DNA from: Candidatus Woesearchaeota archaeon
Lineage (GTDB): Archaea; Nanobdellota; Nanobdellia; Woesearchaeales; DSVV01
Direction: 5' to 3'
Length of the DNA: 38,593 bases
NCBI GenBank assembly: GCA_016935125.1
Contig: JAFGRM010000043.1
Span: 1 to 38,593, forward strand
In this document: positions 113 to 28,534 of the stretch, one piece after another
How positions within the stretch are numbered: position 1 is the first letter of the stretch
Layout of the letters: each line of letters begins with the position of its first letter
Made by a program: the position numbers and the translations under genes
Notes under the pieces: model-generated
What the model saw: only the letters and a program-made list of their open reading frames with translations
The model's database searches: none
Told to the model about the DNA's origin: nothing

Positions 113-406
113 ATGCATGATTATGAAGGCTTTATCAAACATGGCAACAGGATGCTGATCTACACGTATTCTACCAAGCACCTGCTGAAAAAAGATAAAG
201 TAAGGTTCTATTATGCCCTAAAAGGCAGGGATGGCAAATCTGGAGTCGTAAAGAGCATGAAGATTGTCCACCTTGGAAGGACTGTCCTCATGATCCACGA
301 ACGTTATGATGAAGATATCCAGCAGTTCATGAAAGTATGGAACCTGCCTTACACAAGAAGAAAAGCGGTTGTAGACGAAGAGTTAATGAGAGGTGGTCCT
401 CCATGA
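113..406 (+). CDS. Small basic hypothetical protein, possibly a ferredoxin-like (Cas2/VapD-like) fold
   Basis: ORF with TATA-like TTTATATA at 82-89 upstream of ATG 113 (alternative ATG 152). Its stop overlaps the next start (ATGA 403-406). The fold is only a guess from the alternating beta/alpha pattern. Confidence 0.55.
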   Translation: MHDYEGFIKHGNRMLIYTYSTKHLLKKDKVRFYYALKGRDGKSGVVKSMKIVHLGRTVLMIHERYDEDIQQFMKVWNLPYTRRKAVVDEELMRGGPP

Positions 407-3400
407 AGCCCTCTTACTCCTCCATGAGAGATCATTCCATAACAACTGCAGGAATCATTGTGTTTATCTCAGTTACCCTCATGTTGGTTATCCTTGCATC
501 AGCTTCTGCAATCGCCATACAATACACAGTCTGCAGCACAGGATGCAACTTCACCACCATAACAGAAGGCCTTGATAACATCTCTGGCTCTGCAAACACG
601 CTCCTCATAAACGGGTCTGGATCCTATCAAATGGCAGGCACAACAACATCCCCTGTCAATGCCTCATCCAGCTCAGGCGCTATCGAGATCAGCGCCCATG
701 ATGTTGTCCTCGACTGCAACAACACAAACATCACAGGCAACAGCTCAGGATACGGCATCTATGCCTACGCAAGCAACATAACGATAAGGAACTGCAGGAT
801 CGACAGCTACGCATCAGGCATATTCCTAAATGATGTCAGCGGCAGCTCAAGCATCATCAATGACACCATATCCAGCTGCTCATACGGGATAAGGCTGACG
901 AACACAAACAGCTCAGCCATAGTTAGAAACACAATAAGCTCTGCACTGACAAGGGCGATCCTGTTCAACTCAGCAGTAAACAACAGTGTCATCAGCTCAG
1001 CCATAACATCATCTGCTGGCGATGTTGAATCTGCTGGCAGCGGGACTACAAACAGGCTAATCAACACGACATTCGACTCGACCAAGCTAACATTTTCTGA
1101 GAATGCCAATTTGTATGTAAACTGGTTCGTGACTGCATATATCAATGATTCATATGGCAACCCGGTAAACAACACGACAGTGAACATAACTGACACATAC
1201 TCTTCGGCAGTAAGCCTGCTCACTACAGACGCAGACGGATATACAGAGCAGGTAAACATAAGCCAGTACATGATAAACAATACAGGCAGGCTTTATTTTT
1301 CAAACCATACGTTCCATGCAGACAACGGGACAAGCTCGGCAACAGCAGCAGTGAACATAACAGGATCAATGACAGTGGGGCTGACATTTGATGTGATGGC
1401 AGCTTCTCTGAGCATAAATTACCCGCAGAACAACTCAAACCTCGGAAACGACACAGAATGGGTGATGCTGAACATAACGACAGATGAAGATGCATACTGC
1501 AGGTACAGCAACAGCAGCGAAAGCTTTAACTTCAGCTCAGAAGGACTTTTGTTCACGACAACCGGCGGGCCTGTGCACGGGATAAACTATTCAGGCCTTG
1601 CGCCGAACACCAACTATACTATATATTACAAGTGCAACGACAGCGCAGGAAATATCAACAGCCCGGGCATCATGCACAGGTTCAGCGTCAATATGACACC
1701 TGACACGAGCCTGCCTATAATAAGCAACATCTCGGCCGACAGGACAAACACCACTGCAACAATAATATGGGATACTGACGACATGAGCAACTCGACAGTC
1801 TATTATGGCACAAGCGCATCAGCACTGTCATCCAGCGCATCGAACTCGACCATCACAAGCGCACATTCAGTTACCTTAAGCGGGCTCTCATCAAACACTA
1901 CCTATTACTACAATGTAAGCTCATGCAACGCATTTGGCTACTGCAACACCTCAACCACAGGCAGTTTTACAACGCTTGACCTTACACCGCCAGTAATATC
2001 TGCTGTTAGCACTGCCGCAACATCTATCTATTCCGCAAGGATAACCTGGACCACTGAAGAGGGCGCGACAAGCACTGTCAGGTATGGGACAGCTTCAGGG
2101 ATCTATACTGCAACAGCAAGCAACTCAAGCATGCTTACAAGCCATTCTATGAACATCAGCGGCCTTGCAGCATCAACAACATATTATTACAGGGTGAACA
2201 GCACAGACGCAGACGGCAACAGCATAGAGAGCGGCGAATACAGCTTCTCGACACTTGCCGAGCCAGACTTGACAGCGCCGACAATAACATTTTCCATAAC
2301 AAATATGTCCACAGTCGCAGAGTGGAGAAACATCCTGTTGCAGGTCACGACAAACGAGGCGGCAACATGCATAGTTGACGCACAGAAGCTCGGGATTACT
2401 ACATCAACAGCTGACCTTGCCATGGCTTCATCATCATCGACAGGCTACCTTGTGCATACAAGGTATTTCAATGCAAGCGCTGACTCAGTAGGGATTGACA
2501 ATTATTTCACAGTCAAATGCACAGACTCAAACATGAACTCTGGGACAAACGTAATCTTCTTCAGGCTCTATGACACGACCCTGCCCACTCTTGCATTCAG
2601 TGCTCCCACTCCTCAAGACTCTGGGCACACAAGCAACCAGACACTTGCAGTAAGCGTCACTGCAGGCGAACCCCCTTATACAGGCTACCCAAAGATTAAG
2701 GTGGACAGCGCGGCTGCTGCATCCATGACAGCCGGCAGCGGGCTTGGCTACACATATACATCAGGGACCCAGGCAGAGGGGGACCATACGTTCATAGTCT
2801 CGATGCGCGACGCAAAGGGAAATGAGATAAACTATACAAGGACATATACCATAGATATCACAGAGCCGGAGATCACTGTATACTTTCCAGATGGAAAAAA
2901 GATAAAGAACTGCAACGAAGTCACGCTGAATGTCAGTCTTGATGAAGAGGGAAGCTGCGAATACGAGCTGTTCGAAGACCTTGAGGATGATTATGACGAC
3001 TGCGTAACAGATTGCGACGATGACTATGACGACTGCGTCGAAGATGCCAATGAAGAGGATACGACTGCTGAAAAGACAGCGGCAAAAGCCATATGCACAG
3101 ATGATAAGGAATCATGCGAAGAGACATGTGAAGATGACAGGTATGACAGCAAGAAAACAGGCTCATTGAAGCTTGAATACGGCATCTCTGACTGCTATGA
3201 CAACTGCGACGACCTTGAGGACGACTGCAAGGACGCATGCAGCGACACAAGGTCATTATGCTATGCTTCTGCATCTACAAGCGAGGCAAGGGAAGACTGC
3301 GAGGATGATTATGACGACTGCAAGGATGACTGCAGCGACGACCTGGATGACTGCATAGATGAATGCGACGACGAGGAGGAGTTCAATCTCTTCAAGAGCC

Positions 3401-5082
3401 TTGACACTACCTGCTTCTCAGACGGAAGCTACATGATAACATACTCCTGCCTGGACCTTGCCTTTAACCTGGTAGAGGAGAATGTCTCATTCGAGATCGA
3501 GGACACTACACCGCCTGTCATCCTATCTCAGGAGCCGAACGGCACGACGATTTACAGCTCATCTGCAACCCTCAGGGCATACACAAGCGAGGACTCATTA
3601 TGCAAGTTCTCAGAATCTGACAAGAGCTACGCTTCTATGGAATACTACTTCATCCAGACAGGCACTGCCCACAGCTTTACAATGAATAACCTAAATGACG
3701 GGGATTATACATATTACGTCAGGTGCAATGACACCAGAGGCAACGTGATGGCCTCTTCAGGCGTGATCAGGTTCACAATTGACTCAACTAGCATCTCGAG
3801 CAACCTCGCTGTCAAGTCATTCGCGACAATCGAGGCGAACACCTCTGCCACATTTAAGCCTGACAAGCCAGAGATCGCAATAACTGAGCTTGATATTATT
3901 CTAAACGAGAACGTCAACAACGCAAAGTTCAGCATAAGCAAGGCTGCTGACAGGGGATCTGTCCCTGCACCTGCTGACACGCCCTACCAATACATAAACA
4001 TCGAAAAAGAGGGTGTGATGAACAGCCAGATAAAAAGCATAATAATACAGTTCAAGGTCGACAAGGCCTGGCTCAGCTCAAACAGCCTCAATTCAGAGCA
4101 TATATACCTAAGCAAATACACCACGCAATGGAACGATATACCTACAACACAAGTAAGCGAAGACAGCGCATACTACTATTATGAGGCTGAGGTAAGCGAC
4201 CTGAGCTTCTTTGGCATAATGGCCAAAAAGCCTGTAGAGCAGGCCGCAGATCAGCAGGCAGCTGACAGCACACCTGGGCAGGCAGAAAAGATACCTGTAG
4301 ATGGAGACTCCTCTAATGCAGCAGCTGGAACAGGAGAAGAGAGCAAGGCTCCAGATGTCGAAGAGCCTGTCGAGATCAGCGACAAAGGAGGCTCATCGCT
4401 CCTTATATGGATACTCCTTTTGTGTGTTGTGGTTGTGGGAGGCGGTCTTGCCTTCTATTTTGTCTACATGCATAGACACCCCCAACAAGACTCCTCGGCA
4501 AGTCCGCAGATACAACCAACACGGGATTCTATGGCTGCAGCAGGCACAAGCCCTGTTGCAGCTGTTTCCTCCTCTTCTGAGGACACAGGTGCTTATGGAG
4601 GTTCCCTTTCTTCTGAGGGGCCTGATGAGGTTGCAGCATATATACATGAATCACTAAAGTCTGGCGCAGCCCCTGAGGATGTAAGAAGGATCCTTGTCGA
4701 AGCTGGCCATGATGAGAACAGGATTGACATGCTCTTGGACCAGGTCTCAGCCGACAATGCAGACAATGAGCTGGTGAACTACATCAGCGCATCTCTTGCA
4801 AGAGGACAAAAGCCTGATGATGTAATGAGCACGCTTGTTGATGCAGGCCATGACCCTGCAAACATCAAAGCATTGATGAATCCGCTAACAGAACATTATG
4901 AAAGGCTCTTTTCTGACAAGGAACTTGTAGACTATGTCTATAAGTGCCTGAGTGAAGGGCTTTCTGGCAAAGAGATAGAAAAGCTTCTTGTTGATGCAGG
5001 CCATCCTGCTGAAGACATGAAGATGCTCATAGATAAGGTAAAGAACGAAAGATGGTTTATCCAATCAGGCAGATCAGAATAA
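403..5082 (+). CDS. Giant cell-surface/S-layer-like protein: signal peptide, parallel beta-helix, Fn3/Ig-like repeats, Cys/Asp-rich insert, PGF-pre-PGF domain, TM anchor, repeated cytoplasmic helical domain
   Basis: RBS GAGGTGG and ATGA coupling favour start 403. Hydrophobic N-terminus; LDCNNTNITG/NITIRNC beta-helix motifs; Fn3-like W-TD..STV.YG..H.V.L.GL...T.YYY repeats; YQYINI..IQFKVDKAW..SFFGI (PGF-pre-PGF); TM LLIWILLLCVVVVGGGLAFYFVY; many N-x-S/T sequons. Confidence 0.85.
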   Translation: MKPSYSSMRDHSITTAGIIVFISVTLMLVILASASAIAIQYTVCSTGCNFTTITEGLDNISGSANTLLINGSGSYQMAGTTTSPVNASSSSGAIEISAHDVVLDCNNTNITGNSSGYGIYAYASNITIRNCRIDSYASGIFLNDVSGSSSIINDTISSCSYGIRLTNTNSSAIVRNTISSALTRAILFNSAVNNSVISSAITSSAGDVESAGSGTTNRLINTTFDSTKLTFSENANLYVNWFVTAYINDSYGNPVNNTTVNITDTYSSAVSLLTTDADGYTEQVNISQYMINNTGRLYFSNHTFHADNGTSSATAAVNITGSMTVGLTFDVMAASLSINYPQNNSNLGNDTEWVMLNITTDEDAYCRYSNSSESFNFSSEGLLFTTTGGPVHGINYSGLAPNTNYTIYYKCNDSAGNINSPGIMHRFSVNMTPDTSLPIISNISADRTNTTATIIWDTDDMSNSTVYYGTSASALSSSASNSTITSAHSVTLSGLSSNTTYYYNVSSCNAFGYCNTSTTGSFTTLDLTPPVISAVSTAATSIYSARITWTTEEGATSTVRYGTASGIYTATASNSSMLTSHSMNISGLAASTTYYYRVNSTDADGNSIESGEYSFSTLAEPDLTAPTITFSITNMSTVAEWRNILLQVTTNEAATCIVDAQKLGITTSTADLAMASSSSTGYLVHTRYFNASADSVGIDNYFTVKCTDSNMNSGTNVIFFRLYDTTLPTLAFSAPTPQDSGHTSNQTLAVSVTAGEPPYTGYPKIKVDSAAAASMTAGSGLGYTYTSGTQAEGDHTFIVSMRDAKGNEINYTRTYTIDITEPEITVYFPDGKKIKNCNEVTLNVSLDEEGSCEYELFEDLEDDYDDCVTDCDDDYDDCVEDANEEDTTAEKTAAKAICTDDKESCEETCEDDRYDSKKTGSLKLEYGISDCYDNCDDLEDDCKDACSDTRSLCYASASTSEAREDCEDDYDDCKDDCSDDLDDCIDECDDEEEFNLFKSLDTTCFSDGSYMITYSCLDLAFNLVEENVSFEIEDTTPPVILSQEPNGTTIYSSSATLRAYTSEDSLCKFSESDKSYASMEYYFIQTGTAHSFTMNNLNDGDYTYYVRCNDTRGNVMASSGVIRFTIDSTSISSNLAVKSFATIEANTSATFKPDKPEIAITELDIILNENVNNAKFSISKAADRGSVPAPADTPYQYINIEKEGVMNSQIKSIIIQFKVDKAWLSSNSLNSEHIYLSKYTTQWNDIPTTQVSEDSAYYYYEAEVSDLSFFGIMAKKPVEQAADQQAADSTPGQAEKIPVDGDSSNAAAGTGEESKAPDVEEPVEISDKGGSSLLIWILLLCVVVVGGGLAFYFVYMHRHPQQDSSASPQIQPTRDSMAAAGTSPVAAVSSSSEDTGAYGGSLSSEGPDEVAAYIHESLKSGAAPEDVRRILVEAGHDENRIDMLLDQVSADNADNELVNYISASLARGQKPDDVMSTLVDAGHDPANIKALMNPLTEHYERLFSDKELVDYVYKCLSEGLSGKEIEKLLVDAGHPAEDMKMLIDKVKNERWFIQSGRSE

Positions 5083-8510: not shown

Positions 8511-9623
8511 TTATTTGCGGAACAGTTCCTGGATATCTTTCTTGAACCGAAGAAAGCTGTCCTCTTCGATCGCCTGCCTCATCCTCTCAATAAACCTCTG
8601 CATGAAGTATATGTTATGGTATGTCGCAAGCCTTTTTCCTACACCTTCCTTGTTCTTCAGAAGATGCCTTATGTATGCCCTGCTGAAGTTCTGGCAAGCA
8701 AAACAGCGGCATCCCTCTTCTATCGGGCCAGTGTCTTCTGAATACCTCTTCTGGCCCAGCCTCAACCTGCCTTTGAATGTAAAGAGCGTGCCGTGCCTTG
8801 CATTCCGTGTCGGAAAAGTGCTGTCAAAGCAATCATAGCCCATGGCAACTGTCTCCAACATATCAGCAGGGTTTCCTACGCCCATAACATAATGCGGCTT
8901 CTCTTTTGGAAGAAGAGCAGAAGTCTTCTGTAAAACATCATACATCGACTCGATCGGCTCGCCTATCGCAAGCCCTCCCTGCGCGATCCCGTCAAACCCA
9001 AGCCTTACCATGAACTCTATGCTCTTTTTTCTCATGTCATAGTCAAGCCCTCCCTGTGCAATGCCAAACAGGAGCTGCTTATCTTTCTGGTCGATCTCAT
9101 CATGATGCACCTTGCATCTCCTTGCCCACGAGTGAGTCCTAAGCGTCTTTGAACGCACTTCTCTTATGCTGTCTCCTGCATGAGGTACATCATCAAGGCA
9201 CATCGCAATATCTGACCCGATTGTGTGCTGAACATCCATTGCTTTTTCTGGTGTTATCTCATATGTGATACCATTGAAAGGTGACCTGAAAAATGCAGCT
9301 TGATGCGTGCTTTTCATTATCATATCGTCATCAAGGGACTGGAACCCGCCGCTGTCAGTGAACACCACTTTATCCCAGTTCATGAGCTTATGGATACCTC
9401 CTGCCCTTGATATCAGGTCAAGACCTGGCTGCCATGAGAGGATAAGTGAGTTTGATATGACAGCTTCTGTGCCAATCTTGCCTAAGTCTTCTGAATCAAG
9501 ACACTTTACGCTGCCTTTTGTAGCAACAGGCATATAGAAAGGGGTCTTTATCCTGCCATGCGATGTCTGAAGCTCGCCTACGCGCGCCCCTGTCCTGCTG
9601 TCCTCAGCTAAAATCTTATACAT
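8511..9623 (-). CDS. tgt: Queuine tRNA-ribosyltransferase (bacterial/eukaryotic-type tRNA-guanine(34) transglycosylase)
   Basis: ARVG..TPFYMPVAT, TDSGGFQ, LFGIAQGG, GGLAIGE, YVMGVG, DCFDSTFPTRNARHG, Zn site CRCFAC..H; 370 aa with no PUA domain. Confidence 0.93.
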   Translation of the reverse strand: MYKILAEDSRTGARVGELQTSHGRIKTPFYMPVATKGSVKCLDSEDLGKIGTEAVISNSLILSWQPGLDLISRAGGIHKLMNWDKVVFTDSGGFQSLDDDMIMKSTHQAAFFRSPFNGITYEITPEKAMDVQHTIGSDIAMCLDDVPHAGDSIREVRSKTLRTHSWARRCKVHHDEIDQKDKQLLFGIAQGGLDYDMRKKSIEFMVRLGFDGIAQGGLAIGEPIESMYDVLQKTSALLPKEKPHYVMGVGNPADMLETVAMGYDCFDSTFPTRNARHGTLFTFKGRLRLGQKRYSEDTGPIEEGCRCFACQNFSRAYIRHLLKNKEGVGKRLATYHNIYFMQRFIERMRQAIEEDSFLRFKKDIQELFRK

Positions 9624-16549: not shown

Positions 16550-17773
16550 TCAACTAAGACCATAGTAATCGTCAAGCACTAGAACATCTATATCTTCTGT
16601 TTCCTTTGCTATATACAGCTTTCCTTCGCCTATCTCAGTTATCTTCTCAGCAAGCTCTGCGCCCTTGTTGTCCAGGTTTATACCTATGAGCGATATTGTT
16701 ATCCCTGCTGCCTTTGCGACTGATGCTGCCTTAAGGGTGTCCTCCTGTGGATTCTCACCGACTGTTGGCAGCGCATCTGTAAGAAGTATCAGGTGTTTTG
16801 CTGAATCATCATCTGGGAATAGCTCGATGGAGCTCTTGATCGTCGCTGCGATATCTGTCTCGTTTGATGCACGTATCCTGGATATCTCAGAGAGAAGCAT
16901 CGGAAAATCAGCTGACGGCATGATCCTTGTCCTGACATCCTTGCCGAACACGATAAGCCCTACCTTGTCCTTTTCCTCTATCGCCTTAAACGCAAGAGCG
17001 ACACCTGCTCTCTTGCAGTTCTCGATCTTTTTCCCTTTCATAGAGCCAGATGAATCAACTGCATATATAACATTGACCCTGCCTTTTGACATATGGGTAT
17101 AAGACCTAAAGTCTATCGCTGATGCCTTGCCGTGCCCCCTGCGAAGCGCTGTCTTAATAGTCATCCTCACTGCAAAATCCCTGTATGAATCATCTTTCTT
17201 GTATGGCCTTATCTCCTGCTTTTCTCCATACGAGTTCTTCTTCTTATGCAACTTCTCTCCAATAAGGCCTTTTGGGGCAAGCCTGTTAAGCTCTTCAGAA
17301 TAAAGCACGATCGATGCCAGCTCATAGCCCTTCTCTGTCAAAGACATGCTCTTGTCGATGAGCTTCCTCTCTTTCATGCCCTCTATGCGCTCTGCAATCC
17401 TCTTCTTCAGCTCGCGCTGGAACTCAGGGATGCTAACATTCTTTTCAATATAATCAGGGTCATAACCAAAAAGCGCCCGGATGATCTTTTCGCCGTATAT
17501 ATGCTTTGCCATAGAATAATCCTTGACAAGCTTTTCAAACATCATGTCTGGCGTAAAAGAGCTGAACCCTGAATTGATCGCATCGTTTAATAGCTTTCCG
17601 TCATCTATAGTCTGCTTGTCGTTTTCCAGAACTGAATTCATAAGCTTGTCCTGCTCAGATTGCTTGTCAAGCTTGCCTGTAAGCTCTTCAGCTGAAGAGA
17701 GCTTCTCCTTTTTTAGGTCTAGCTTTTCTTGGGATAGATCCCTGCTACCGGCAACCACCCTGCTCCTCATCAT
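16550..17773 (-). CDS. vWA (MIDAS) domain protein, ChlD/BchD-like
   Basis: IYAVDSSGSM (DxSxS), ETDIA, LILLTDA. Start uncertain; overlaps the AAA+ gene. Confidence 0.88.
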   Translation of the reverse strand: MMRSRVVAGSRDLSQEKLDLKKEKLSSAEELTGKLDKQSEQDKLMNSVLENDKQTIDDGKLLNDAINSGFSSFTPDMMFEKLVKDYSMAKHIYGEKIIRALFGYDPDYIEKNVSIPEFQRELKKRIAERIEGMKERKLIDKSMSLTEKGYELASIVLYSEELNRLAPKGLIGEKLHKKKNSYGEKQEIRPYKKDDSYRDFAVRMTIKTALRRGHGKASAIDFRSYTHMSKGRVNVIYAVDSSGSMKGKKIENCKRAGVALAFKAIEEKDKVGLIVFGKDVRTRIMPSADFPMLLSEISRIRASNETDIAATIKSSIELFPDDDSAKHLILLTDALPTVGENPQEDTLKAASVAKAAGITISLIGINLDNKGAELAEKITEIGEGKLYIAKETEDIDVLVLDDYYGLS

Positions 17774-18809
17774 TGACAATATCAGGATACTTGTCCTGGA
17801 TGAATCTGTCGAATTCCTGCTCGATCAGCTCTCTTGGCTCCTTTAGGTACTTTACTGATGGCTTGAGCTTGATCCTGTGGGCAAGGACTGAGACAACGAC
17901 ATCTTTTAGGTCAGGATAGCTGACAACATCGTTTCCGTTGAGATATGCGTTTGCCTGGGCACGCTCATAAAGCCCGATTGTCGCCCTGACAGAAGGTACC
18001 TTCTCAAGGCTCTCCTCTTCCCGAAGCTCGCGGATGAACCCTACAATTATCTCTTTTATCAGCTCAGGCGTCTCGACCATGTTGCATCCCTTGCTGACCA
18101 TGACATCCTTTTCGATCTGGTTTGTCTCAGGGTAGGTCATATAGACCACATCAAACCTGTCAAGGAGCACGTCTGACAGCCTCTCTGTATTTATGTCGAC
18201 AGGGTTCATAGTGCCGACAAAGATGAAATTTGTCTCGATATCTACATCATAGCTGCCAATGGTCGCCCTGCCCTCTTCAAGCACCTGCAGGAGCGCGTTC
18301 TGAAGCTTTTCAGGGCAGCGGTTCAGCTCGTCGAAAAAGAGCACAGAGTTATTGGCCTTGAATATCTTACCTGGGGTAAATGCCTCTATGCTGAGCGGCC
18401 CGTATTCCATCGCCTTTATAGGGTCTATGTCACCTATCAGGTCTTCTGCAGATAGGTCAGGACTTCCCTGTATCCTTACAAAACGCTGCTCGCCCTTTAT
18501 TATTAGCTGTGATTTTGTCTTCCCTGACCTGCATGCAGGACAGACAGGGTTGGCAGGGTCGCATTTGAACTCGCAGTCGTTAACTGTTATCTCAGGAAGA
18601 AGCTTTGCAATGTTTTTTGCAATGGTCGTCTTGCCGATTCCTGGCTGGCCGAATATGACAATATGCCTGTTCATAAGAAGCGCGGACTTGATCTGCTTTT
18701 TTGCAGTCTCCTGGCCCAGGATGTCAGTGAATATGTCATCCCTGCTCCTGAATATCTCTGCCAATGAATTCCTTATTTTCGGTTTGATGTTTTTGTTGTC
18801 CATTTTCAT
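17745..18809 (-). CDS. AAA+ ATPase, ChlI/MoxR family
   Basis: DILGQE, Walker A GQPGIGKT, CEFKCDP..PVCPAC insert, EDLIGDID, Walker B FFDELNR, QNALLQVLEEG, LLDRF, VLAHR. Confidence 0.92.
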   Translation of the reverse strand: MKMDNKNIKPKIRNSLAEIFRSRDDIFTDILGQETAKKQIKSALLMNRHIVIFGQPGIGKTTIAKNIAKLLPEITVNDCEFKCDPANPVCPACRSGKTKSQLIIKGEQRFVRIQGSPDLSAEDLIGDIDPIKAMEYGPLSIEAFTPGKIFKANNSVLFFDELNRCPEKLQNALLQVLEEGRATIGSYDVDIETNFIFVGTMNPVDINTERLSDVLLDRFDVVYMTYPETNQIEKDVMVSKGCNMVETPELIKEIIVGFIRELREEESLEKVPSVRATIGLYERAQANAYLNGNDVVSYPDLKDVVVSVLAHRIKLKPSVKYLKEPRELIEQEFDRFIQDKYPDIVNDEEQGGCR

Positions 18810-19002
18810 ATACCTTTTATCAAAAATATCAGAGGAGTTTTTCAAGGTTTTAAAAGTTTACTGAAAAGGATGCAGTTCTTTTGAATGTTGCCAGAATATG
18901 CCAGATGATTGACAGAAGCTGCGAAACACTGATTTAAAAAACATGATGCAAAAAAAGCATGAGGGTTCTTCATGACCGTTGTATGAACATGCATAGTCGT
19001 GC

Positions 19003-23413: not shown

Positions 23414-23992
23414 TCACAAAACAGAAAAAATCTTTCTTTCCTCTCTTAATACAGCCTCAAGATTTGCCCGTGTTGCAGGGTTTTGGGGCACAAACCTGCA
23501 CGCGGATCCCTTTGTATCTGCAACAGAGATATCATACGTCCCAATCCTTCTTGCAATATCTATCGCCTCTTTCTTGTCAAAGCACAGCAAAGGCCTGAGC
23601 ACAGGGATCCCTACTGCGTTGTCAAGCACAGATAGGTTCTCGAGCGTCTGGCTTGCGACCTGGCCAAGGTTTTCGCCAGTGACTATGTAGCCTGCCCTTA
23701 TCCTTTTTGCAAGGGCCTCAGCTTCCCTGTACATCGCCCTTTTGCACAATACGCATGTCAGCCTGCGGTTGGCATTTTCAGCTATCCTCTTTAGATCTGG
23801 CATAAAATCCTTTATCACCAGCTCTGAACTGCTGTTGCCATCTATCTTGACCTTGATCTGCCTGACCTTCTTAAGATCAGTTGGGTTTGTGTTGAGGTGC
23901 AGGTATGTCAGTTCGACACCCTGATTTTTCATGAGCCAGCTTGCAACAGGGCTGTCAATGCCTGTGCTCAAAAGAGATACTGCCTTATTCAT
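23414..23992 (-). CDS. thiI: Short ThiI-like protein (PP-loop catalytic domain only, no THUMP/NFLD or rhodanese domain)
   Basis: LLSTGIDSPVA, CVLCKRAMYR.A, VTGENLGQVASQTLENL, VLRPL..DK.E, IGTYDIS..C...P..PAT. Start at ATG 23992 or GTG 24013. Confidence 0.85.
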   Translation of the reverse strand: MNKAVSLLSTGIDSPVASWLMKNQGVELTYLHLNTNPTDLKKVRQIKVKIDGNSSSELVIKDFMPDLKRIAENANRRLTCVLCKRAMYREAEALAKRIRAGYIVTGENLGQVASQTLENLSVLDNAVGIPVLRPLLCFDKKEAIDIARRIGTYDISVADTKGSACRFVPQNPATRANLEAVLREERKIFSVL

Positions 23993-24031
23993 CTTATTAT
24001 TTATAGTAATCACCTTTTATTAAAATACATC

Positions 24032-24490
24032 TCACAATAGTTCTATGGGATCACCCTGCCTGATAATACCCCCTTTTAACACCCTTGCAAAGATCCCTTC
24101 TCTTGGCATGATGCATGAGCCTACCTTTTTTGATATCTCACAGCCTGCATGGCATTCCTTGCCAATCTTTGAGACCTCAAGCATAGCATCCCTTATCCTA
24201 AGTCTTGTTCCGATCGGCAATGTGTGTAGGACAATGCCTGATGTTGTGATATTCTCTGCAAAAGCACCAAAGCTAAGGCTGTCTGGACCGAGTTTCCTGC
24301 AGATCTTTTCAAGGTTCTCTTCCTTGAATCTTTCATAAGATTCGCAGGCAATAAGAGATAGCTGCCTGTCTCCATCGCCTGCATGCGCATCATGCTCAAT
24401 TCCCTGCTCTTCAAGAAGCCTTGCCTCAGTGACAGGCTGTTTTGCTGTCCCTCTCATACTGCTTACATTTATCGAGACTATTTCTGCCAT
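24032..24490 (-). CDS. Stand-alone MOSC domain protein
   Basis: GIEHDAHAG..RQLSL, GAFAENITT.G, IGKECH..C.I....G.CIMPREGIFARVL.GG.I..GD. Confidence 0.9.
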   Translation of the reverse strand: MAEIVSINVSSMRGTAKQPVTEARLLEEQGIEHDAHAGDGDRQLSLIACESYERFKEENLEKICRKLGPDSLSFGAFAENITTSGIVLHTLPIGTRLRIRDAMLEVSKIGKECHAGCEISKKVGSCIMPREGIFARVLKGGIIRQGDPIELL

Positions 24491-24677
24491 CTTATCTTCT
24501 CCCTGTTGATTGCTTCAATCTTTCAACAGTAATCCTTAACTATCAACTTCCAACAGTAACCCTGAACCATAGATCTAAAAAAGTAATCCTGAACATCAAC
24601 TTCCCACAGCAATCATTGACTATCAATCTTCAAAAAAATAATCTAGGCCATAAATCCCCAACAAACTTTCTTGATCA

Positions 24678-25928
24678 TCAAAAAAGGCTTACCTCTACAA
24701 CATCGCCTTTCCTTACCACTTCAGTATTCTCATCGATGCATATGAAGCCGTCTGCATCAGAGAGTGTCGTTATCGCGCTTGACCCTTTCATTACTGGGGA
24801 GGCTGTAAAGAAAGGGCTGCTCGTGTCAAGCCCATTTTTCTTTGCCTCTGAAACCTTAAGCCTTACAGGCAGGAACTCAAACCTCCCTATTGTCGATGCG
24901 ACCTTCCTTTCCAGCACGGCATAAGCCTTCTTTAGCCTGAATTCTGATCCCATCATCCTGTAGATTGCAGGAAGCACCAATGAGTATACATTTGAAAGCG
25001 CCGACGTGGGATAGCCTGGCAGCCCTATGACAGGCGAAGACCTGACCTTTCCCACAAGAACAGGCTTACCTGGCTTTGATGCGATACCATGCACAAGGAC
25101 ATCTCCTATCTGCCCGACAGCATCCAACATGAAATCCTCGCCGCCCAAAGAGGAGCCTCCTGAAAAGATGAGCAGGTCTACATCATCTATCCCTGAAAGG
25201 ATCGCCTTTTTTATATCGCTGACATTATCACTGACCAGCCCAAGGCAATGGACATTGCAGCCATGCTCTTTTAACGTATCAACTACAGTCCTTGTATTGA
25301 TATCATATACCTTGCCTGGCAAGAGCGCCTGTCCCGGGCTTAAGACCTCGTTTCCTGTTGAAAAATAAGCGACTGAAGGTGCCTTGCTTACCTTGACGCA
25401 CCTTATGCCAACAGAAGAGAGCACACCGAGGTACCTGGGGTTAAGCCTTGTGCCCTTGCTAAAGATAAGCTGGCCTGACCTGACATCACTCCCTGCCGAA
25501 ATTGTGTTCTCACCTGGCGCACATGCCTTATAGAACACTATGCTGCCATCCTCCTTTTCTGCATACTCTATCATCAAGACTGCATCAGCACCCTTTGGCA
25601 GGGGAGCGCCGGTCGTAAGCTCGATGCATTCACCTTTCCTTACCTCTTTTCTCGGGATAACCCCTGCTGTAACAGACTCTATGACCTTAAGATGCTTTGG
25701 GCTGGTGTTCGACGCGCCGAAAGTATCTTCTGCAATGACAGCAAACCCATCCATCGCGCTCTTCTGGAAATGAGGCACATCTATCGATGACTTTATGTCC
25801 TCGGCAAGAACCCTTCCATCCGCATCTTCAAGACTGACAGTCTCTCTTCCTGTCTTTCCAGCCACATCCTCGATTATCCTTGATGCTTCAGCAAGCGATG
25901 CTAGCTTTCCAAAACCATGTTTTGTCAT
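24678..25928 (-). CDS. moeA: Molybdopterin molybdenumtransferase
   Basis: GRVLAEDI..DVPHF.KSAMDGFAV, TGAPLP.GADAV, STGNEV, YDIN, SGGSS.G..D, KPGKP, GLPGYPTSA. Confidence 0.95.
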   Translation of the reverse strand: MTKHGFGKLASLAEASRIIEDVAGKTGRETVSLEDADGRVLAEDIKSSIDVPHFQKSAMDGFAVIAEDTFGASNTSPKHLKVIESVTAGVIPRKEVRKGECIELTTGAPLPKGADAVLMIEYAEKEDGSIVFYKACAPGENTISAGSDVRSGQLIFSKGTRLNPRYLGVLSSVGIRCVKVSKAPSVAYFSTGNEVLSPGQALLPGKVYDINTRTVVDTLKEHGCNVHCLGLVSDNVSDIKKAILSGIDDVDLLIFSGGSSLGGEDFMLDAVGQIGDVLVHGIASKPGKPVLVGKVRSSPVIGLPGYPTSALSNVYSLVLPAIYRMMGSEFRLKKAYAVLERKVASTIGRFEFLPVRLKVSEAKKNGLDTSSPFFTASPVMKGSSAITTLSDADGFICIDENTEVVRKGDVVEVSLF

Positions 25929-26082
25929 CTTCAACCTTTCTTATTCAACCCTTTATAATCCAACTCGTTTTCATCTGATACATCATCAGACCTGCCATTA
26001 TATTTTCCTGTATATTTCCCAGCAGATTCTGCATCCAGTCTTTCATGTTGCCTTTCATATTGTCCATATTGTTCTTCAACCA

Positions 26083-26649
26083 TCATCTCTCCCCCAGATG
26101 CGTTATTATGTGCCCTGCTTCAGGCATGATAAGGTTTTCCATCGCAAGCCTGCATGCGCGTGGGCTGCCAGGAAGGCAGAAAACCGCCTTTTTGCCGACT
26201 ATACCTGCAGTCGCCCTGGAAAGATACGCTGCAGGGCCTATCGATGAGAAACTAAGCTGCATAAACAGCGGATTGAAGCCAGCAAGCTCTTTTTCAAACA
26301 ACGGCCTGACTGCCTCTATCGTCACGTCTGAGCCAGATATTCCTGTTCCGCCGTTTGTTATGACAACATCAATGTTTGGGTCCCTGCAAAATTTCTTGAC
26401 AATGCTCAGTATCATCCGCCTGTCGTCATGGACCACAACATGGAACAGTACGCTGTGCGCATCTGAACCTATCAACTCTTTTATGGCCTTTCCGCTCATG
26501 TCATCATCGATGGCCTTGCTGCTGGAAACAGTGACGACTGCAAAATTCAGCCTCATCTGCACTGCCCCCTTGTGTTCTCCTGTCGTATCAATATCTGCTT
26601 CTGGCTTTTTTTCTGGTGTAGTGTTTTTTTCCTGCGTTGCATTTATCAT
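26083..26649 (-). CDS. moaB: Molybdopterin adenylyltransferase MoaB/MogA
   Basis: VVTVSS, D.SG, DVVITNGGTG....DVTIEA, LSRATAG, FCLPGSP. Start may be downstream (MRLNFAVV). Confidence 0.9.
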   Translation of the reverse strand: MINATQEKNTTPEKKPEADIDTTGEHKGAVQMRLNFAVVTVSSSKAIDDDMSGKAIKELIGSDAHSVLFHVVVHDDRRMILSIVKKFCRDPNIDVVITNGGTGISGSDVTIEAVRPLFEKELAGFNPLFMQLSFSSIGPAAYLSRATAGIVGKKAVFCLPGSPRACRLAMENLIMPEAGHIITHLGER

Positions 26650-26701
26650 GATTCTTACCTCACTGCATCTCTCATTATATTAACTTGCTATGTTAGCCAA
26701 C

Positions 26702-27136
26702 TCACAGTCTCTTTGCCTTTTCCTTTACTCTTATCCCTGAAATCATAGTGTTCGGATACTGGCCGTCTGCGTCTTTTTCAAGATACTTTACCATGTCCCA
26801 TACTGTAGCAAGGGCAGCAGCAACACCCACCAGCGCCTCCATCTCAACACCTGTCTTTGCTGTCGCAGCAACCCTGAGCTTTGCATAAACCTCATCTGAG
26901 CCCACCTTGAACTCACAAGAAACATCCTCAACAGCTATCTGGTGGCAGTGCGGGATAAGCTCAGGTGTCTTTTTTACTGCAAGGATCGCCGCAATCTCTG
27001 CTGCAGCCAGCGGATCGCCTTTCTTAACATCGCCTGACAAGATAAGGTCTACAGTATCCCTGCCAAGTGTGATCTTCCCTTCTGCAACAGCTGTCCTCAG
27101 GACAGGCTTTTTCCCTGATACATCAGCCATACCCAT
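26702..27136 (-). CDS. moaC: Cyclic pyranopterin monophosphate synthase
   Basis: MADVSGK....RTAVAEG, KKGD, KKTPELIPHCH, TGVEMEAL, WDMVK. Confidence 0.95.
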   Translation of the reverse strand: MGMADVSGKKPVLRTAVAEGKITLGRDTVDLILSGDVKKGDPLAAAEIAAILAVKKTPELIPHCHQIAVEDVSCEFKVGSDEVYAKLRVAATAKTGVEMEALVGVAAALATVWDMVKYLEKDADGQYPNTMISGIRVKEKAKRL

Positions 27137-28175
27137 ATTTATCCCTCGCCTTGACCGCTTTTGCCAGCGCACAAGCTCCCTTAAACTCAAATACCTCATC
27201 CTTTCTCATAAGGCATGGCATAATCCTGCCATGGCAGTCTATCCTGACCTTATTGCATCTGCTGCAGAAATCTGGACTCGGCCTCACCACCTCTACAAAT
27301 ATGCCGTCCATGTAATATCTCATCCTTCCCTGCATAGCCCTTTTTCTAACAGACTCTGATCTCTGCCTAAGCTCATCCTCAATATCCATTAGAGGATAAA
27401 AATAGCTCTCAAAGATACCCATGTCACCTAACCTCACAAGCTCTATCAGCTGGAGGTTGATGCCTTTAGCTGCGCAAAAATCTATCATCGGCCAGATCTC
27501 GCCATCATTTATGCCTCTTAACACGACCATGTTGAGCTTTACCTGAAGTCCTGCACGGACTGATTCAAGCATGCCTTTTTCAAGGCGTACTGCATTTTTC
27601 GGAAGCTGGCTGCTAAGCGTAAGCGTATCACAGCCTATGTTGACGTGATTTAGCCCTGCATCTGCAAGCTCGCATGCGCAGGAATGAAGCAATGTGCCGT
27701 TTGTAGTCAGGCCTATGTCTTCATAACCGAGCATGTCCGCATACCTGACTATCTCTGCAATATCTTTCCTTAGAAGGGGCTCGCCGCCAGTAAGCTTAAG
27801 CGAGCTGATGCCTGCCTTTTTTGATTCTGAAAGGATCTCAAACACCTTTTCTGTGCTGACCTCATGCATGTTTCCGGCATCTCCTGTAGTATCCTGTGTA
27901 TTCCCTTCCTTATGGCAATAGAAGCAGTCAAGGTTGCACCTTTTAGTCAGGGAAAGCCTTAGATGGTCCACATGCCTTCCTACTGCATCGATCATCTTTG
28001 CATCTGTCATCGTTGCATCTGTCATCGTTGCATCTGTTATCGTTGCATCTGTTATCGTTGCATCTGTCATCGTTGCATCTGTCATCGTTGCATCTGTTAT
28101 CGTTGCATCTGTTATCGTTGCATCTGTTATCGTTGCATCTGTTATCGTTGCATCTGTCATCGTTGCATTGATCAT
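27123..28175 (-). CDS. moaA: GTP 3',8-cyclase with N-terminal pentapeptide-repeat extension
   Basis: D..GR....LRLSLT.RCNLDCFYCH.EG, LTGGEPLLR, TTNG, KLNMVV.RG.N, FCSRCNKVR..G...PCL. Canonical N-terminus at ATG 27995; ATG 28175 is coupled to the modE stop. Confidence 0.93.
   Translation of the reverse strand: MINATMTDATITDATITDATITDATITDATMTDATMTDATITDATITDATMTDATMTDAKMIDAVGRHVDHLRLSLTKRCNLDCFYCHKEGNTQDTTGDAGNMHEVSTEKVFEILSESKKAGISSLKLTGGEPLLRKDIAEIVRYADMLGYEDIGLTTNGTLLHSCACELADAGLNHVNIGCDTLTLSSQLPKNAVRLEKGMLESVRAGLQVKLNMVVLRGINDGEIWPMIDFCAAKGINLQLIELVRLGDMGIFESYFYPLMDIEDELRQRSESVRKRAMQGRMRYYMDGIFVEVVRPSPDFCSRCNKVRIDCHGRIMPCLMRKDEVFEFKGACALAKAVKARDKYGYG
27996..28175 (-). repeat. 15-bp in-frame tandem repeat AT(G/A)ACAGATGCAACG, 12 units, encoding (M/I)TDAT
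   Basis: 180 nt directly visible; first and last units slightly degenerate. Confidence 0.95.
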
Positions 28176-28534
28176 TTTATGCTCACAACCGCATCTTCAT
28201 ATTTTTTTAACAGCTCTTTTCCAAATGGGTTAAGCGTTGTACTGCCGCCTGCGTCTTTCCCGCCTTTTGAGGTCACTATTATCTTTTGCTTCAGCCTGGA
28301 CTCGATCCTCTTTATGTAGTTATATGCTGTCTTGTATGAAAGCCCGCACGCTTCTGCGCTCTTCTTAAGCGAGCCAGTCTGATCTATGCATCTTAAAAGC
28401 ATGTATCTGCCCTTGCCTAGAAGTGGTCTCCCCATATAATCCAGCCATATCTTATATTTATAGCCAACATTCTTCAGTTTGGCTGGTTTCAGTTCAAGGC
28501 TGTCCTGTCCTTTATAATCAATCCTTATTCCCAT
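28172..28534 (-). CDS. ModE-like winged-HTH regulator (DNA-binding domain only, no TOBE domains)
   Basis: KIWL....LLGKGR..LL..I..TGSL..SA...GLSYKTAY.YI...E......I...KGG...G...L...G..LL; heads the Moco operon. Confidence 0.88.
   Translation of the reverse strand: MGIRIDYKGQDSLELKPAKLKNVGYKYKIWLDYMGRPLLGKGRYMLLRCIDQTGSLKKSAEACGLSYKTAYNYIKRIESRLKQKIIVTSKGGKDAGGSTTLNPFGKELLKKYEDAVVSIK

Follow-up and report, generated by a model that had tools for sequence, protein, structure and literature searches.

Gene Content of the Locus

The window analysed here is a 38,593-nt contig stretch from a Candidatus Woesearchaeota archaeon whose genome (G000) spans 1.26 Mb and is 93% complete; its closest protein relatives carry mostly Woesearchaeota or Nanoarchaeota source names. 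At positions 23414..28534 it carries an operon of seven genes, all on the minus strand, in the order modE-like, moaA, moaC, moaB, moeA, MOSC and thiI (Table 1), as already identified in an earlier note on this DNA. The last gene encodes a ThiI/TtuI catalytic domain lacking THUMP, referred to below as short ThiI. Sequence comparison and structural modelling make it quite probable that this protein acts as the catalytic subunit in a tRNA U8 sulfurase (TtuI/ThiI) of the [4Fe-4S] type that is split into a heterodimer, the second subunit being encoded elsewhere in the genome. The best explanation of the locus is that short ThiI and the molybdenum cofactor (Moco) operon are two unrelated things lying side by side.

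The order modE-moaA-moaC-moaB-(tupABC)-moeA-MOSC recurs in relatives, so the operon is not a chance assembly, but the terminal thiI does not recur. Orthologs of the ModE-type helix-turn-helix (HTH) regulator are likewise the first gene of the same operon in relatives. The moaC gene probably starts near 27136, overlapping the moaA stop, and thiI probably starts with the ATG at 23992, giving a product of 192 aa. The distance from the MOSC stop is 39 bp to this ATG or 18 bp to an upstream GTG, in keeping with the close spacing reported earlier. A promoter and terminator scan of the operon returned 10 and 4 sites, the same as in shuffled sequences, with a bacterial model applied to an archaeal host.

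Table 1. Coordinates and supporting matches of the genes discussed (cPMP, cyclic pyranopterin monophosphate; MPT, molybdopterin; NFLD, ferredoxin-like domain at the N-terminus; AOR, aldehyde ferredoxin oxidoreductase; GAPOR, glyceraldehyde-3-phosphate ferredoxin oxidoreductase)
Feature	Position	Strand	Basis
ModE-type HTH regulator, DNA-binding domain only	28172..28534	-	TIGR00637 E 2e-16, below cut-off
MoaA, GTP 3',8-cyclase	27123..28175	-	NF001199, above cut-off
MoaC, cPMP synthase	26702..27199	-	PRK12343, above cut-off
MoaB/Mog, MPT adenylyltransferase-like	26083..26649	-	
MoeA, metal insertase	24678..25934	-	
Stand-alone MOSC of PRK14499 (MoaC-MOSC) type, candidate MoaE replacement	24032..24490	-	PF03473 E 2.5e-13, above cut-off
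THUMP-less ThiI/TtuI catalytic domain	23414..24013	-	PF02568 E 2.3e-55, residues 9-195
NFLD-THUMP ThiI paralog, 331 aa	C52:2028-3023 (locus L009), outside the window		ThiI_fer, THUMP and weak ThiI domains
ThiS/SAMP-type carrier, 64 aa, GG end	C17:1751-1945		ThiS 24.2 bits, cut-off 22.5
ThiF/MoeB enzyme	C17:1946-2659, directly after the carrier		ThiF E 1.8e-55
GAPOR-like AOR-family enzyme, 623 aa	C17, 2.4 kb beyond carrier/ThiF		429 bits against GAPOR_Arch cut-off of 1300, E 2.9e-128; only family matched

A Short ThiI and Its THUMP-Bearing Paralog

The motifs described for the short ThiI in the earlier note are all present. Its PP-loop reads STGIDS (residues 16-21), with S16, G18, I19, D20 and S21 each reaching at least 90% conservation over 100 sequences, and D20 is invariant in the same set together with C87 and C90 (CVLC) and the distal C172. 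All 30 short ThiI proteins inspected keep CxxC plus a distal Cys, and 23 of them also match the strict PP-loop pattern. In the 199-aa thiI frame no Pfam match to NFLD or THUMP was found, and MOSC lies directly upstream. The best PDB match is Thermotoga maritima ThiI (4KR6, E 1.5e-29), and the best NCBIfam match is PRK08349, annotated as "hypothetical protein", which covers the full length (E 4.2e-59) at 199.8 bits against a cut-off of 251. Short ThiI has 1109 relatives of similar length.

The missing domains were found on a second gene. A genome-wide search revealed the window gene as the only ThiI with catalytic motifs and a single separate THUMP-bearing protein, encoded on contig C52, as the sole THUMP match in the genome. 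This ThiI paralog has neither a PP-loop motif nor CxxC, its PP-loop domain is shortened and degenerate, and its best PDB match is Pyrococcus horikoshii PH1313 (1VBK, E 1.4e-34), whose features it shares. Because NFLD-THUMP sits on the C52 protein, short ThiI is not a canonical TtuI/ThiI member; it would be TtuI/ThiI-like only together with its partner, the [4Fe-4S] cluster and 4-thiouridine (s4U) formation at position 8 being predicted. Low-complexity inserts were also observed in the C52 paralog, as well as in the TtuA N-terminus.

The two genes are tightly linked in their distribution. Among 401 genomes of the order, 188 match short ThiI; including G000, 150 of the 189 matches were classed by open-frame length (39 weaker ones lie outside this classing), giving G000 itself, 111 relatives with frames too short for THUMP, and 38 with full-length ThiI. 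Partners were then sought with a profile built from seven such proteins, one of them unpublished. A separate partner is present in 102 of the 111 short-ThiI genomes (76/80 plus 26/31) and in none of the 38 full-length-ThiI genomes, 37 of which do match the profile, always at the full-length ThiI frame itself. Fifty genomes had no ThiI match (all such genomes among G001-G100), and a separate partner occurs in 3 of them; two of these three are 86-87% complete, and one of the matches is a 477-aa frame. Omitting seven unpublished genomes leaves the result in place (97/106 and 0/36). Four families (f21, f91, f116 and f131) each hold both short and full-length forms, and the partner splits in the same way. 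In addition, all five short-ThiI genomes picked from the class sample of G401, which consists of small genomes partly from the same places as the order sample, contain the partner.

None of the 30 best-scoring of the 102 partners keeps the PP-loop, CxxC or QVxSQ motif, and the CxxC helix is gone from the partner family, while E11, K15, G16 and N18 are invariant. The complementary pattern of loss in the two ThiI copies is thus visible in the sequences themselves. In an unrooted tree of the PP-loop domain (25 short, 17 full-length without CxxC and 3 full-length with CxxC), the short proteins form one side of a branch with support 92/93, which is below the starred threshold, and full-length CxxC rows are too few to show origin. 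In one relative (G381; L050:90-1583), the THUMP-less ThiI has a class I methyltransferase domain as a C-terminal fusion.

Genomic neighborhoods provide a functional context. The starts of both genes lie at most 5.4 kb apart in 10 genomes, two of them unpublished, and in G088 the two genes overlap head to tail (L261); the low-complexity insert is absent from this pair. The cluster in G224 comprises short thiI, thiF, an HTH gene, iscS, iscU, the partner, a GG-carrier and ttuA, with similar clusters in G092 and G155, and sufBC-like genes lie between short thiI and the partner in G325, G164, G286 and G230. The pair flanks iscS-iscU or sufBC-like genes beside ttuA in six genomes (G092, G155, G224, G325, G164 and G286). 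Such clusters of short thiI, partner, ttuA and Fe-S genes are a tRNA-thiolation context. The IscU/NifU gene of G155 is itself split by an intein with a LAGLIDADG domain (L255:3176-4690).

Predicted Complex and Proposed Mechanism

Modelling of the short ThiI together with the C52 paralog yielded a heterodimer score of 0.84, compared with 0.38 for the best control, on a scale whose mark is reached by 116 of 157 solved pairs and 2 of 215 mismatched pairs. Individual runs share at least 81% of contacts, and the partner pLDDT is at least 84. T. maritima ThiI dimerizes through its PP-loop domains. RNA bound to NFLD and THUMP of one subunit has its U8 positioned at the PP-loop domain of the second, and the NFLD loop 12-21 of the first subunit folds onto loop 289-297 of the second, with Lys17 entering the active site there (PMC4041423). 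The modelled interface takes in partner residues 11-18 and short-ThiI residues 116-125, which are the loops meeting across subunits in 4KR6. The model lends support to the proposed binding of short ThiI to its partner.

On this basis, a gene duplication may have been followed by division of labor: one copy would have kept the PP-loop domain and the three Fe-S cysteines only, and the other NFLD-THUMP plus a dead, shrunken PP-loop domain that would serve as a docking surface. The split would exploit the in-trans arrangement of the ThiI dimer, with the partner holding the tRNA and short ThiI modifying U8. The pair would use ATP to adenylate U8, and O4 would give way to sulfur carried on the open iron of a [4Fe-4S] cluster with three Cys ligands, a chemistry proposed by extension from the TtuI of Methanococcus maripaludis and Pyrococcus furiosus. 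According to PMC9825150, full-length TtuI with CxxC + C needs a [4Fe-4S] cluster. The s4U8 sulfurase activity of the pair is a prediction from sequence and model.

Several observations weigh against this assignment. Neither co-occurrence nor docking tells which RNA is the target, and kin are not independent in the co-occurrence counts, so that Fisher tests serve as description only. Nine of the 111 short-ThiI genomes show no partner match, six of them (G255, G186, G332, G153, G044 and G053) being 93-99% complete. Contig ends truncate three of the "short" frames (G349, G052 and G057), and a fourth is the fusion in G381. The motif check of partners covers the 30 best-scoring ones, and 7 of 30 short proteins depart from S[GSTA]GxDS, the window protein reading STGIDS. 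The 0.38 control, which paired short ThiI with an unrelated protein, exceeded the floor of 0.32, and the heterodimer score itself may reflect resemblance to ThiI homodimers of solved structure (4KR6 and 2C5S). Finally, thiI, 39 bp after MOSC, may be co-transcribed with it in G000.

Some of these points would also fit an arrangement within the same pathway but without a U8 heterodimer: a short homodimer, action at another position or on another RNA, or a dead paralog acting as tRNA chaperone or adaptor, as Tan1 does for Kre33. Short ThiI keeps its own dimer surface and scored 0.38 with an unrelated chain, the solved PH1313 structure is a self-dimer with no activity shown (PMC9957541), and nine genomes have no partner match. 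However, the pair stands in for full-length ThiI on a one-to-one basis, with no extra partner in any of the 38 full-length genomes, the NFLD lysine loop, which extends into the active site of the other subunit, is retained in the partner, and THUMP has been described as the ruler for position 8 (PMC4041423). This alternative is considered unlikely, and the split U8 sulfurase is retained as the preferred reading.

Relationship between the Short ThiI and the Moco Operon

The earlier note had proposed that MOSC and short ThiI together may replace molybdopterin synthase, with ThiI as the new element and partner of MOSC. In such a scheme ThiI would adenylate cPMP and supply sulfur from its Fe-S site. 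ThiI chemistry, which converts a carbonyl oxygen to sulfur, is formally apt for such a step. In G000 the two genes are adjacent, co-oriented and only 39 bp apart, and no MoaE match exists in the genome. Nevertheless, 7 of the 11 MOSC-positive moaC genomes of the order lack short ThiI: G014 and G135 have full-length ThiI, and G066, G084, G187, G364 and G388 have no match at E 1e-15. Conversely, short ThiI is widespread without Moco genes, moaC being present in only 3 of the 111 short-ThiI relatives and unmatched in the other 108. The gene following MOSC in 10 relatives is GAPOR-like in three, PFOR-like by eye in one, part of an fdhD-mobA-oxidoreductase set in one and unrelated in five, but never thiI, and across 80 wider MOSC loci from prokaryotes ThiI occurs in one, full-length and 4 kb away. 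What short ThiI does track is the separate THUMP protein, and both outcomes that had been named as speaking against the proposal are borne out wholly or partly. Because of this distribution and neighborhood, the MOSC-ThiI partnership is rejected as extremely improbable; the MOSC half of the proposal stands as a hypothesis based on gene patterns, and the ThiI half does not.

Local moonlighting, in which short ThiI is a tRNA enzyme subunit everywhere but also feeds sulfur to MOSC in this genome, is considered very unlikely. It would account for the tight MOSC-thiI spacing; a THUMP-less domain would leave an open active site, and short thiI adjoins thiF in G366, G285, G303 and G224, so it does associate with sulfur-relay genes. 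However, the arrangement was seen in one genome only. MOSC and short ThiI sit apart in the same-family relative G366, and in the genome of the closest MOSC relative (L157, 62%) short ThiI and its partner are on other contigs than MOSC. Since the neighbors of short ThiI vary widely across 29 loci, a chance neighbor is to be expected. The position of thiI after MOSC in G000 would accordingly reflect a lineage-specific rearrangement.

MOSC and the Missing MoaE Step

The remaining six genes may be regarded as a mobile operon for a pterin cofactor, with tungsten as the most likely metal and a GAPOR-like client on C17. Gene patterns give about an even chance that its three-Cys MOSC does the job of MoaE. 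The statement in the earlier note that MoaD, MoaE and MoeB are missing is correct for the operon, where no moaD, moaE or moeB was found. It does not hold for the genome: C17 encodes a ThiS/SAMP-type carrier and a ThiF/MoeB enzyme, and only MoaE was not found, with no PF02391 match at E 0.1 in the 93% complete genome and a best E of 0.24 with a profile of six MoaE-like proteins. The 64-aa carrier was missed by a genome-wide ThiS family search and was recovered by a scan for short frames ending in GG.

The pterin-cofactor pathway is rare in the order, with moaC above cut-off in 13 of 401 genomes. Eleven of these have MOSC without a MoaE match, G104 has MoaE without MOSC, and G249 has an isolated moaC with neither; ThiF occurs in 12 of the 13. 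All 11 MOSC genomes match a pterin-dependent enzyme, either GAPOR-like (10 genomes; weak in G366, partial in G229) or a molybdopterin oxidoreductase within the operon, and since each matches an AOR-family or molybdopterin oxidoreductase, all should need molybdopterin. The only MoaE among the 13 genomes lies in a moaD-moaE-moaCB cluster on a 1.8-kb contig (L010), which may have been acquired separately or stem from a binning error. In the 80 wider MOSC loci, moaC is present in 56 and moaA in 51, and none matches the one MoaE query used.

Within MOSC itself, H36, C113, C117 and C126 are invariant across 71 sequences, and the motif reported earlier (C113-H114-x2-C117 plus C126) is present. These invariant residues might form a sulfur-transfer or Fe-S site, and Moco binding or action on cPMP is a candidate function. 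MOSC would convert cPMP to molybdopterin, with the sulfur supplied either by the carrier and ThiF of C17 or by sulfide. The carrier and ThiF may serve TtuA instead or as well. In Thermococcus kodakarensis, s4U levels are unchanged in sulfur-carrier mutants (PMC11323500), which makes TtuA and the pterin likelier recipients of sulfur from the GG carrier than the split TtuI.

A different role for MOSC, as a cofactor-binding carrier, a sulfurase or a small enzyme with molybdenum or tungsten cofactor (Moco/Wco) like YiiM or mARC, is a serious possibility that falls only a little short of an even chance; the MoaE step would then be carried out by something unrecognised or encoded in unassembled DNA. 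A sequence search of the PDB with MOSC gave no match, and its model (pLDDT 92) matches the folds of YiiM and YuaD (TM 0.73-0.75) and also mARC1; the solved MOSC folds are Moco-binding proteins, which speaks against a MoaE-like role. Surveys place MOSC at a later step or count MOSC proteins as molybdoenzymes (PMC1779556, PMC6147048). Scoring covered 48 of the first 50 genomes in the wider set of 80 MOSC loci; 10 of the 48 contain a weak MoaE-like gene (E 6e-10 to 1e-6), a further point against replacement of MoaE, although 38 show no match. The five such genes inspected (L237-L241) are stand-alone, divergent and 120-141 aa in length, lie off the operon with no other Moco gene in their 3-kb loci, and come from anaerobes with MOSC. 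The carrier or molybdoenzyme role sits poorly with the lack of MoaE in all 11 MOSC genomes of the order despite their AOR-family or molybdopterin oxidoreductases, with the lack of MOSC in the sole MoaE genome of the 13, and with the position of MOSC near moaC, seen at 56 of the 80 loci, and its fusion to moaC in PRK14499. Incomplete genomes weaken the MoaE-absence counts on which replacement by MOSC depends.

The idea that MOSC replaces molybdopterin synthase is not new, as PMC4751268 proposes the same for Dehalobacter, and incomplete synthases beside mosC have been described in Geobacter (PMC2700814). No experimental test of MOSC as a synthase replacement was found in the literature listings searched.

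Tungsten is pointed to because five relatives (G014, G066, G084, G187 and G388) carry tupABC-like genes between moaB and moeA; in G000 this position holds a 148-bp gap (25934-26083), and a TupA query found no match in the genome. Regarding clients, a DMSO-reductase-family enzyme was sought in G000 and none was found. Between the carrier/ThiF genes and the GAPOR-like gene lie acetate kinase- and phosphotransacetylase-like genes, named by eye. Contig C32 encodes a TtuA/NcsA-like protein, and C15 a cysteine desulfurase and IscU.

Two operon variants were observed among relatives. In G135 (L069:4063-13130) the Moco operon is extended by fdhD, mobA, a formate-dehydrogenase-type molybdopterin oxidoreductase and Fe-S and flavin subunits, which is unusual for the lineage. 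In G187, MoaA and MoaC are fused into a 415-aa protein (L016:682-1926), which could be an assembly read-through; PMC11237513 identified no MoaA-MoaC fusion in its archaeal set.

Other Features of the Window and Genome

Inside the moaA frame, a 15-bp tandem repeat (27984-28168; 12.3 copies, 95% identical) encodes about 11 DAT(I/M)T units ahead of the normal N-terminus and looks like an expansion of the start region. Tandem repeats account for 28 rows over the window (1-38593), many of them intergenic, and the G000 genome seems prone to short repeat expansion. Elsewhere in the window are a 1581-aa protein with fn3/purple-acid-phosphatase-N and Ig-like domains (337-5082), a queuine tRNA-ribosyltransferase (8511-9623) and a MoxR-type AAA ATPase adjoining a vWA protein (16550-18845). 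On another contig, a weak ThiS stretch occurs in a 718-aa protein (726-aa frame; C78:9721-11877, L001), which by eye we take to resemble a long RelA/SpoT.

Significance and Comparison with Known Systems

Both proposals taken together would comprise a heterodimeric [4Fe-4S] tRNA sulfurase, present in more than one quarter of the sampled genomes of the order and giving the PH1313 family its function, and a MoaE-independent MOSC molybdopterin synthase whose three invariant Cys, perhaps an Fe-S or metal site, install the dithiolene by a route probably used by many MoaE-less anaerobes. That both hold is a tentative proposition, judged somewhat less than evenly probable. If the split is real, a catalytic partner would explain the dead PH1313 family, which has a crystal structure, and would offer a clean case of an in-trans homodimer splitting into two specialised subunits. 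It would also correct the annotation of both genes, which are now labelled "ThiI" or "hypothetical". MoaE-less molybdopterin synthesis in anaerobes is a question raised by the Geobacter and Dehalobacter genome papers, and the near-exclusive pattern of MOSC and MoaE, together with the invariant residues, names a candidate protein and mutants.

No report of a two-gene ThiI was found in the literature, mainly in open-access texts (e.g., PMC2948915, PMC11237513, PMC5372739, PMC7694415, bioRxiv 10.64898/2026.08.09.743744 and PMC13144720), although a supplementary alignment of PMC9825150 may be relevant to the novelty of a split TtuI. In current papers, TtuI is invariably presented as a single chain with three domains.

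For MOSC, the closest parallels are the PRK14499 MoaC-MOSC proteins and the Dehalobacter MOSC (PMC4751268), where MOSC lies in a Moco cluster without moaD or moaE and is proposed as a synthase replacement. The present MOSC differs in being stand-alone, in occurring in a small-genome archaeon and in having a GAPOR-like client, and its role as a replacement is a prediction.

The split sulfurase resembles several described proteins. ADAT2-ADAT3 and Ncs6-Ncs2 are heterodimers of active and inactive paralogs that modify tRNA. They are eukaryotic and catalyze other reactions, so the resemblance to a split TtuI is one of analogy and not homology of arrangement; the role of Ncs2 has been called unclear (PMC5372739). 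PRK08349 (198 positions), to which no function is assigned, matches short ThiI over its whole length, although below cut-off. PH1313, like the C52 protein, combines NFLD and THUMP with a shortened PP-loop domain devoid of the conserved residues; PMC9957541 gives its activity as unconfirmed and its solved form as a self-dimer, and describes no partner. The [4Fe-4S] TtuI of M. maripaludis and P. furiosus (PMC9825150) shares with short ThiI the PP-loop domain, CxxC + C, the lack of a rhodanese domain and an expected dimer. According to that paper, NFLD, THUMP and the PP-loop domain are always in one chain, whereas here NFLD-THUMP resides on a second, dead paralog. T. maritima ThiI (4KR6; PMC4041423) provides the model for RNA held by one subunit and modified by the other, as proposed here; however, being a homodimer it has two sites, and it uses a single catalytic Cys, whereas the proposed pair would be asymmetric with one site.

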